NCBI GenBank assembly: GCA_041395865.1
Contig: JAWKZQ010000003.1
Span: forward strand, 69,394-133,393
Length of the DNA: 64,000 nucleotides
Reading direction: 5' to 3'
From: Pseudomonadales bacterium
GTDB taxonomy: Bacteria; Pseudomonadota; Gammaproteobacteria; Pseudomonadales; IMCC2047
A program made the position numbers and the translations under genes. Shown piece after piece: positions 11,364 through 13,144 of the stretch (positions are counted from its first letter, which is position 1; every line of letters begins with the position of its first letter). The notes under the pieces were generated by a model, which was not told where the DNA came from, did no database searches, and worked only from the letters and a program-made list of their open reading frames with translations.

Positions 11364-12170
11364 TTATCCCTTGTGGCTGGGACGGGCACAGGCGCTGAGC
11401 GGCGTGATTCTGAGGCTATGCGCTGCCAGAGGCGACTTTTCAACATGGGCGTTGATGGCAAAATAGGCGGACAGGTTGTCCTCGGTCAGCACTTGCTCCG
11501 GCGATCCGTCGGCGGATACCTTGCCTTCGCTGAGCAGAATCAGCCGGTCACAGAAACGGGAGGCCATGGCGAGGTCATGAATGGCGGCAATGACCAGCTT
11601 GCCGTCATCCGAGAGCCTTTTTGCCAGATTCATCACCTCCAGTTGATGGCAAAGATCAAGACTGGCTGTGGGTTCGTCCATGAACAGGATCGAGGTTTCC
11701 TGGGCCAGTGCCCTGGCGATGAAAACGCGCTGGCGCTCGCCACCGGAAAGCTGATCGGTGCGACGGCCAGCCATTGGCAGCAGGTCGGTTTTTTCCAGTG
11801 CCTGATGAATAATACGGCTGTCCCTGTCGGTTTCGGGCCGGAAGGCGCCCAAATAGGGGGTTCTGCCCATCGCCACAATCTCCCGCACATTAAACGCGTA
11901 ACCGATGGCGGTATCCTGCGGCACGAACGCAATTCGCCGGGCGATCTCCCGCTTCGAATAGGTGCGCAGTGGCTGGTCATCCAGCGCTACCTCGCCCTGT
12001 GTCGGCTCAAGCAACCCCATCAGCAATTTGAGCAAGGTTGATTTGCCGGCACCGTTCGGGCCGATCAAGCCCACGAATTGGCCCTTGTTAAAACTCAGGG
12101 TAACATCATCGATAATCCGGCGGCGTTGGCGGGTAAGCGCCAGCTGGGTACAACTGAGCGGTGGGGTCAT
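11364..12170 (-). CDS. btuD: ABC transporter ATP-binding protein (BtuD/FecE-HmuV class)
   Basis: Walker A GPNGAGKST, signature LSGGERQRV, Walker B ILFMDEPT. Last gene of the riboswitch-controlled operon. Confidence 0.85.
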   Translation of the reverse strand: MTPPLSCTQLALTRQRRRIIDDVTLSFNKGQFVGLIGPNGAGKSTLLKLLMGLLEPTQGEVALDDQPLRTYSKREIARRIAFVPQDTAIGYAFNVREIVAMGRTPYLGAFRPETDRDSRIIHQALEKTDLLPMAGRRTDQLSGGERQRVFIARALAQETSILFMDEPTASLDLCHQLEVMNLAKRLSDDGKLVIAAIHDLAMASRFCDRLILLSEGKVSADGSPEQVLTEDNLSAYFAINAHVEKSPLAAHSLRITPLSACARPSHKG

Positions 12171-13144
12171 GAGGTTTCCTGCGTTTCCGGGCGGTCAAAA
12201 CGATGACGCCAATCCTGTAGAAGCGGGCAACCAGGCTGCATGTGGGCGGCCTGGCGTAGTGCTATTCGGGCCGCGAGCCGGCCAAGCCGGTCCGTTGGGG
12301 CTGGATAATCACGTGCCGCTGTTTTTTGGGTATAGGCGGCCAGGACCTGCTGCTTCTCCGTGACATAGTTTGATAGTCCATAGTCCGCAAGAAGGTTCTG
12401 GAAGCCCTCATGCAACTGGCGATCAAAGGGATGCGGTTCGCCCAGCAAATCGTAACAGGGGTTGGCCGGGTAGAGCATTAAACCGGCAATCAGGCCTTTG
12501 GGAATGGGGGCGTTGGCGGCATGGTGCAGGCCGCTTTTCAGTAACTTTGGCAGGACGTGGGTGTGCGGCCCCTCAGGGGATTTCTCGATGCCGATCGGCT
12601 GATACACCTCCAGGCGCGCCAGGCGGGAAATAAACACCCGGTGGGGATGGTGACGCAGGATATGCCGGAAACCGCCGCATTCGGGCGCGAGAATATTGGC
12701 GCCCTGTAAGGCACGCAAAGCGGCAATCAAACCGGCATTGTCGGTGCGTATGCAGACATCCACATAGGGGGTCCCCAGACCCAGGTCGAAAAGCACCTGC
12801 TCACGGTGCGCCGCCAGAATACTGCCTGAATCGGTCCCCAATTCGGTAATGCCGGTTCTTGCGGTCATTCGGGCGCTTGCCTCGGGTAAACAGAAGGCAA
12901 CGGCCTGCCCCCAGTGATCGCGATGCCGGCGGCTGGTTTCATAGGCCAGCGGTGTGCAGTCCTCAAGGTGATCCACCCGGATGCCGCCGCGTGCGGTGGC
13001 AATGCTTAACTGCGGGCCGGGGGCAATCAGGCGCGTTTCGTTTTCATCCTGAGAAAATTCGCCCAATGCGCCAAAGGCGCCCAGGCTCCAGCTACTTTGG
13101 CAGTTGTCGAGGTGCTCGAGAATCAGCGATTTTGTCATCGTCAT
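12167..13144 (-). CDS. hypothetical protein embedded in the B12 uptake operon
   Basis: 325-aa ORF with no signal peptide, TM segment or P-loop that I can see. It starts 7 nt after the btuC stop and makes a 4-nt ATGA overlap with the btuD start. I do not recognise the family. Confidence 0.7.
   Translation of the reverse strand: MTMTKSLILEHLDNCQSSWSLGAFGALGEFSQDENETRLIAPGPQLSIATARGGIRVDHLEDCTPLAYETSRRHRDHWGQAVAFCLPEASARMTARTGITELGTDSGSILAAHREQVLFDLGLGTPYVDVCIRTDNAGLIAALRALQGANILAPECGGFRHILRHHPHRVFISRLARLEVYQPIGIEKSPEGPHTHVLPKLLKSGLHHAANAPIPKGLIAGLMLYPANPCYDLLGEPHPFDRQLHEGFQNLLADYGLSNYVTEKQQVLAAYTQKTAARDYPAPTDRLGRLAARIALRQAAHMQPGCPLLQDWRHRFDRPETQETS

Follow-up and report, generated by a model that had tools for sequence, protein, structure and literature searches.

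A DUF6925 protein encoded in cobalamin-riboswitch-controlled Btu operons is a candidate corrinoid-handling partner of the vitamin B12 importer

We analyzed a 64,000-nucleotide (nt) stretch of the genome of a Pseudomonadales bacterium (contig JAWKZQ010000003.1, positions 69,394 to 133,393; hereafter the window), in which a vitamin B12 uptake operon controlled by a cobalamin riboswitch encodes, besides the BtuBFCD-like importer, a soluble protein of 325 amino acids (aa) that we call X. X is firmly linked to the B12 regulon by an old association that has withstood rearrangement, while not being absolute, and both alpha- and gammaproteobacteria have retained the linkage of X to the importer genes in several gene orders. 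We propose that X serves the BtuBFCD importer in the cytoplasm as a corrinoid-handling partner, binding or processing the incoming corrinoid, a role that we regard as about evenly balanced between being right and wrong.

The operon order riboswitch-btuB-btuF-btuC-X-btuD, given in an initial annotation made from the DNA letters, was confirmed by the open reading frames (ORFs) and by Pfam and Rfam matches; the operon lies on the minus strand, which that annotation had left unstated (Table 1). Both junctions of X that it described were also found by direct reading of the sequence: X starts after a 7-nt gap behind the btuC stop (...CAG ATC TAA CAGGGTT ATG ACG ATG...), and its TGA stop overlaps the btuD ATG by 4 nt in the form ATGA (...ACC TCATGA CC). 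A consensus scan of the btuB-btuF-btuC-X-btuD string for internal terminators and promoters identified none that were convincing above the shuffled expectation. Being located on the same strand downstream of the RF00174 riboswitch in one uninterrupted gene string, X is counted as a member of the B12 regulon. The cobalamin riboswitch thus controls a transcript that X shares with the importer subunits, to which X is coupled in translation and in stoichiometry. The start of X is ambiguous between Met1 and Met3, because a 99%-identical database protein (P0001) has 323 aa, and the real start of the btuF-like ORF is possibly downstream of the listed TTG. The operon is otherwise a standard riboswitch-controlled Btu system, and its new part is X, an additional component that is conserved and unstudied and for which no structural relative could be detected.

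The context of X was compared in 80 X loci from species other than that of the window, with neighboring genes labeled by phmmer searches in which the Btu proteins of the window served as queries. Riboswitches were located by an nhmmer profile built from 12 aptamers that Rfam had confirmed, and this profile also recovered the window riboswitch (17369-17548, minus strand). The btu genes were next to X on the same strand in 66 of the 80 loci (64 by script, plus L037 and L070 by inspection). With the importer genes abbreviated by their last letters, the observed gene orders were BFCDX (30 loci), BFCD-cbiZ-X (13 loci), and BFCXD (4 loci, which are the closest relatives of the window), along with the single cases BXFCD, BX, BFCX, XBFCD, and XBF. 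Since it recurs in so many loci and in several gene orders, the linkage of X to btu genes is far beyond chance. A cobalamin riboswitch was found upstream of btuB in all 50 loci that retain this region; the script reported 49 of them, and its lone exception, L078, also has the riboswitch, upstream of a split btuB. In the latter locus (Bosea sp. UC22_33, 5243-7322), btuB is divided into ORFs at 5243-5740 and 5778-7322 with an intact riboswitch, reflecting either a frameshift or a pseudogene. In L064, a cobalamin riboswitch (Rfam, 44.8 bits) precedes X by 131 nt and serves X alone. The initial annotation had named a lack of linkage to B12 riboswitches or btu genes in other genomes as an outcome that would refute its reading, and these results show the opposite.

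Comparison with Pfam assigned X to the DUF6925 family (PF21973) as a full-length member, with a score of 355.9 bits (cut-off of 27) and residues 5-299 aligned to profile positions 3-300 of 300. All 51 aligned homologs of X also matched DUF6925, and no second Pfam family was common to them, even at a weak threshold (E <= 10). Thus, the family that the initial annotation was unable to name does have a name. The other outcome that it had named as refuting, a match of X to a well-characterized unrelated family, was not observed. No NCBIfam model matched X, no related PDB chain was found by a profile search with X, and no alternative annotation was obtained from Pfam, NCBIfam, or the PDB profile search. 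X has no hydrophobic or transmembrane segment (maximal 19-residue Kyte-Doolittle mean of 0.96) and no Walker A motif or P-loop, in agreement with the first reading of the sequence. At the level of sequence, the conserved btu and riboswitch linkage and the sole Pfam match to DUF6925 support the suggestion of the initial annotation that X is a candidate cytoplasmic corrinoid-processing or transporter-accessory protein. DUF6925 is of moderate size, with 929 matches in a 90% cluster database and 1,355 clusters at 50% identity (E <= 1e-3), including 572 at E <= 1e-30, and at least 578 species genomes, almost all of alpha- or gammaproteobacteria, carry a homolog. Among the 1,355 cluster representatives screened, DUF1289 was the only real fusion partner of DUF6925; longer proteins contained DUF6925 only, together with one probable miscalled fusion to a BtuD fragment. 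In a literature of 8 million papers, we found none mentioning DUF6925; the literature searches also gave nothing about an X-type protein in work on btu, cbiZ, and the riboswitch, and only incidental mentions of DUF1289. In L074, an intact copy is accompanied, at a distance of 4 kb, by a truncated DUF6925 fragment (8268-9068; profile positions 199-288) beside a transposase-like ORF, and this fragment is probably a pseudogene that remains from a duplication.

The family consists of a main subfamily, to which X belongs, and a second subfamily described below. Residues invariant in both are G22, G25, G103, D105, D120, G122, L123, R133, G148, R169, R177, I184, G192, H194, T195, H196, and L198, and those nearly invariant in both are W19, E29, F30, C131, E179, and R206, whereas E69, W78, C85, and the C-terminal R293, R297, Q298, and W312 are specific to the main subfamily. 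The AlphaFold2 model of X, obtained from the 51-sequence alignment, is compact and very confident (predicted local distance difference test score of 95.4, predicted template modeling score of 0.92). Its N-terminal part is rich in beta-strands, its middle part is mixed alpha/beta and carries the HTH strand at 194-197, and its C-terminal domain (242-316) is helical. Of the searches suggested as a check by the initial annotation, those with profile hidden Markov models matched only DUF6925, and the fold search, with Foldseek of the model against the PDB, returned no match that reached E 0.001. Motifs or folds for the binding of flavin or NAD(P)H were not detected in X.

The most conserved motif of DUF6925 is PHTHVLP (residues 193-199 of X), which the initial annotation had described as similar to the histidine triad (HIT) proteins. 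The motif is real, but the HIT likeness found no support in hhalign or Foldseek, and we do not place X in the HIT superfamily. The G192-P193-H194-T195-H196-V-L segment has only two histidines and an invariant threonine at position 195, so that the triad H-φ-H-φ-H-φ-φ is incomplete, its first histidine being the missing one. The hhalign probability of the two-subfamily alignment against E. coli HinT was 0.3%, and that against E. coli GalT was 0.7-0.8%, with either a single sequence or a 16-sequence alignment for GalT; the latter is a weak, low-diversity profile, as all gathered homologs were >= 82% identical. These alignments span only 5-14 residues, and for GalT only GPHTHVLPKLLKSG of X is aligned, to QLHAHFYPPLLRSA (residues 294-307). 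No HIT protein appeared in the Foldseek output for the whole X model or for its isolated C-terminal half. The likeness is thus confined to the motif, in which HTHVLP of X lies on a beta-strand after a hairpin loop and GalT has HAHFYPPLLRS. The corresponding motif of Fhit is HVHVHVLP, and by eye the spacing R177-x16-H194-x-H196-V-L-P of X equals that of the strand-loop-strand carrying the histidine triad in Hint and Fhit. The GalT segment 294-307 gives histidine ligands to a structural metal (iron) site, and H194 and H196 may therefore have a metal-binding role.

Other genes recur next to X. The cbiZ gene directly precedes X in 19-21 of the 80 loci by phmmer, or about a quarter, which echoes the point made in the initial annotation that B12 regulons recruit remodeling enzymes. 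In Roseovarius, the genes are arranged as btuB-btuF-btuC-btuD-cbiZ (PF01955)-X-exbB-exbD-exbD-tonB, with a 4-nt overlap between cbiZ and X, and exbB-exbD-exbD-tonB directly follows X in other Rhodobacteraceae as well, while in L010 and L017 a Pfam-confirmed TonB_C gene is directly upstream of X. A gap of similar size between btuD and X in L012 and L055 may hold a TonB_C gene too. Homologs of cobT, cobS, cobU, or btuR were present within 10 kb of X in only two of the 80 loci, on the opposite strand, so X tracks the uptake machinery and CbiZ rather than the loop-assembly genes. In three Rhodospirillales/Rhodovibrionaceae loci, a two-domain polyphosphate kinase 2 gene was observed approximately 90 nt after X, and btuD is missing from the string; the L039 protein matches PF03976 (E 3e-123), and the ORFs of L052 and L069 start with near-identical sequence.

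The second DUF6925 subfamily is represented by a distant copy in L010, which combines an N-terminal four-cysteine DUF1289 domain with a DUF6925 core (profile positions 3-228) and has no C-terminal helical region. The DUF1289-DUF6925 architecture is common, with 311 matches of approximately 294 aa in alphaproteobacteria. In L010 and in a Methyloceanibacter metagenome-assembled genome, the fusion gene follows a Peripla_BP_2 gene, which itself has no room for a signal peptide, and is co-operonic with a ZnuA/ABC-3/ABC_tran importer. Its neighbors on a Cereibacter azotoformans plasmid are CbiA-family, FecCD, and CbiM genes. A cobalamin riboswitch heads the fusion unit in all three distinct loci (L010, L085, and L087; L086 repeats the Cereibacter locus L085 and was counted once). 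Since the fusion subfamily is also riboswitch-controlled, the DUF6925 core is tied to the B12 regulon twice, independently, and the L010 and L087 units may constitute a B12-regulated cobalt or metal system. The Cereibacter plasmid (CP089968.1) carries six cobalamin-riboswitch matches within 15 kb (594-12839 of L085), which interleave with three tandem CbiA-family genes, a FecCD/ABC/Peripla_BP_2 importer, a cupredoxin gene, DUF4198, and CbiM.

Table 1. Features of the window operon and of selected X and fusion-gene loci
Feature	Locus	Coordinates	Strand	Match
Cobalamin riboswitch aptamer, operon head	Window	17369-17548	minus	Rfam RF00174, 124.3 bits, E 9e-31, full-length model match
btuB-like TonB-dependent outer-membrane receptor	Window	15276-17162	minus	Pfam Plug + TonB_dep_Rec_b-barrel
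btuF-like periplasmic binding protein	Window	14189-15199	minus	Pfam Peripla_BP_2, E 1.9e-32
btuC-like permease	Window	13152-14246	minus	Pfam FecCD, E 1.4e-92
X, soluble 325-aa DUF6925 protein	Window	12167-13144	minus	PF21973, E 2.5e-106
Codons of G192-P-H194-T-H196-V-L-P199, DUF6925 signature motif	Window	12548-12571	minus	GPHTHVLP
btuD-like ATP-binding cassette (ABC) ATPase	Window	11364-12170	minus	Pfam ABC_tran, E 3.8e-36
Fusion unit	L010	14285-19666		
Fusion unit	L087	3074-7882		
Fusion unit	L085	6412-7945		
TonB-system genes flanking X	L010	8818-9978		
TonB-system genes flanking X	L017	9652-9960		
TonB-system genes flanking X	L083	9038-11253		
Polyphosphate kinase 2 gene	L039	11077-12570		
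Polyphosphate kinase 2 gene	L052	11009-12502		
Polyphosphate kinase 2 gene	L069	2386-2781		

The mechanism that we infer for a corrinoid-handling partner is as follows. X would meet the corrinoid once BtuCD releases its cargo into the cytoplasm and would bind it via a conserved polar cluster (E29, D105, D120, R133, R169, R177, E179, H194, and H196), in which H194 and H196 are candidate cobalt or metal ligands. X may then hand the corrinoid on or prepare the cofactor by upper-ligand removal or cobalt reduction, and the next users would be an adenosyltransferase, the remodeling enzyme CbiZ, or B12-dependent enzymes. The helical domain at the C-terminus (~242-316) could be a transporter-docking part, because it is absent from the paralog that is not linked to BtuCD. 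Several observations weigh against this role. Corrinoid binding or activity is a candidate property of X, deduced from sequence and context, and neither the PDB profile search nor Foldseek detected in X a motif or fold known to bind B12. The X-B12 link is not obligatory, because eight loci with long flanks (L004, L013, L014, L017, L018, L020, L031, and L044) have neither a btu gene nor a riboswitch near X; the neighbors at orphan loci are unrelated to B12, such as DUF6869 and a glycosyltransferase (L013/L081) or a thiamine pyrophosphate riboswitch (L044). In L029 and L043, X is located just upstream of the riboswitch-btuB unit. The fusion paralog accompanies a ZnuABC-type metal importer rather than BtuCD, which fits a metal or redox role too. 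Finally, E. coli and Salmonella import and use B12 and are not known to have an X-type protein, and X is therefore not universally required.

Three other functions have to be considered. X might be a corrinoid salvage or remodeling enzyme, namely a hydrolase or transferase that acts on the nucleotide loop or on a CbiZ by-product, in the CbiZ pathway and not at the transporter. The frequent adjoining or overlap of cbiZ and X points in this direction, as do the many invariant charged residues and the HxH motif, which resemble an active site, and the homologs of CbiZ and CbiR encoded beside transport genes (PMC7733943). However, most X operons, including that of the window, have no cbiZ, the genes of the cobT/cobS/cobU/btuR type are rare within 10 kb of X, and no resemblance of X to CbiZ, CbiR, or the nucleotidyl enzymes of the HIT/GalT type was found, which makes such an enzyme unlikely in our estimate. 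A protein that handles metal or redox chemistry within the B12 regulon, such as a cobalt or corrin reductase or a metallochaperone, would have its metal site at H194/H196 and the carboxylates and may not passively carry an intact corrinoid. This function is suggested by the fusion paralog, whose four-cysteine DUF1289 module is named 'predicted Fe-S protein YdhL' by sources and whose gene is co-operonic with a metal-type importer behind a cobalamin riboswitch, and also by the best motif-level match of GPHTHVLPKLLKS, which is GalT 294-307, the iron-site segment; this match is not significant. We consider it quite improbable, given that the main subfamily has no cysteine-rich module (C85 is invariant only there, and C131 is only nearly invariant), that motifs or folds for flavin or NAD(P)H were not detected, and that the partners of the main subfamily are corrinoid rather than metal transporters.

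A passenger gene, B12-regulated by its position and dispensable for corrinoid uptake and use, as is reported for the peroxidase gene btuE in E. coli, would account for the location of X in the btuE slot between btuC and btuD in the window and for the eight orphan loci in which X is away from btu genes. The linkage, however, survives many rearrangements in two proteobacterial classes, the L064 riboswitch controls X alone, and an independent paralogous subfamily is also riboswitch-linked, so that a passenger seems very improbable. With a corrinoid-handling partner being preferred, we tentatively put forward a broader proposal, to which we assign somewhat less than even probability: DUF6925 would be a structurally new class of cytoplasmic corrinoid-processing protein that provides the missing bacterial step between BtuCD and the B12-using or remodeling enzymes, with the invariant His-x-His binding and perhaps de-ligating or reducing the cofactor, and with the four-cysteine sister subfamily performing related chemistry in a second riboswitch-controlled system.

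Three further regions of the window were noted. A tightly packed gene string at 6086-11290 (minus strand), the first gene of which is 73 nt past the btuD stop, encodes a thermostable-hemolysin family protein, an AMP-binding enzyme (with a 26-nt overlap between these two), a methyltransferase, a Kdo/WaaP-type kinase, a Haem_oxygenas_2 iron-redox enzyme, and an SDR protein; this string may be transcribed by read-through from the B12 operon. Upstream of the riboswitch, the region 18042-24849 (minus strand) is a lipopolysaccharide-modification neighborhood with three sulfatase-superfamily genes, one of the EptA/EptB phosphoethanolamine-transferase type, and an LptF/LptG permease gene. At 49230-49535 (minus strand), Rfam identified three tRNA genes in tandem.

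Bacterial B12 handling after release by the ABC importer is poorly defined with respect to the recipient, the removal of the upper ligand, and the coupling of uptake to remodeling. DUF6925 could fill this post-import gap, as the family is widespread, almost always wired to the riboswitch and btuBFCD, often paired with CbiZ, absent from the literature, and with no PDB relative detected. Its function also matters for the cross-feeding of B12 in communities of the sea and the soil, from which most DUF6925 carriers come.

X belongs to none of the HemS/ChuS/PhuS, CblC, CbiZ, and CbiR families, but these are its nearest counterparts in role, and it can be compared with them and with other known systems. 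HemS, ChuS, PhuS, and ShuS are soluble cytoplasmic proteins of approximately 340 aa that are encoded in type II heme-importer operons with a TonB receptor and have been proposed to take cargo from the transporter. The analogy with X is one of role only: the operon logic (TonB receptor plus Peripla_BP_2/FecCD/ABC) is the same, whereas no HemS/ChuX Pfam match was obtained for X (E <= 10, 51 members), no such chain was among the best Foldseek matches listed (and none at E 0.001), and the cargo of X would be a corrinoid, with control by a cobalamin riboswitch. In E. coli, the glutathione-peroxidase homolog btuE is located between btuC and btuD (btuCED). Such linkage of btuE is not known outside the enterobacteria, and btuE is reported to be dispensable for transport; its family is unrelated to X, the linkage of which is broad. 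With regard to the adenosyltransferases CobA/BtuR, PduO, and EutT, X has no Walker A motif and no Pfam or NCBIfam match to them, and the only locus in which phmmer with E. coli BtuR gave a match was L079, where the match was to another ORF. CbiZ (adenosylcobinamide amidohydrolase) and CbiR (cobamide phosphodiesterase) are, like X, accessory cytoplasmic proteins at B12 uptake loci, and coupling of both enzymes to corrinoid uptake has been suggested (PMC7733943). X is not similar to PF01955 or to the AP-endonuclease-2 family that includes CbiR, and it co-occurs with CbiZ as a separate neighbor instead of replacing it. CblC/MMACHC differs from X in that X has no corresponding Pfam match, PDB fold match, or evident flavin or glutathione site. 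As the eukaryotic cytoplasmic B12 decyanase/dealkylase-chaperone and the first cytoplasmic protein to process incoming cobalamin, however, CblC/MMACHC fills the same niche that we propose for X.

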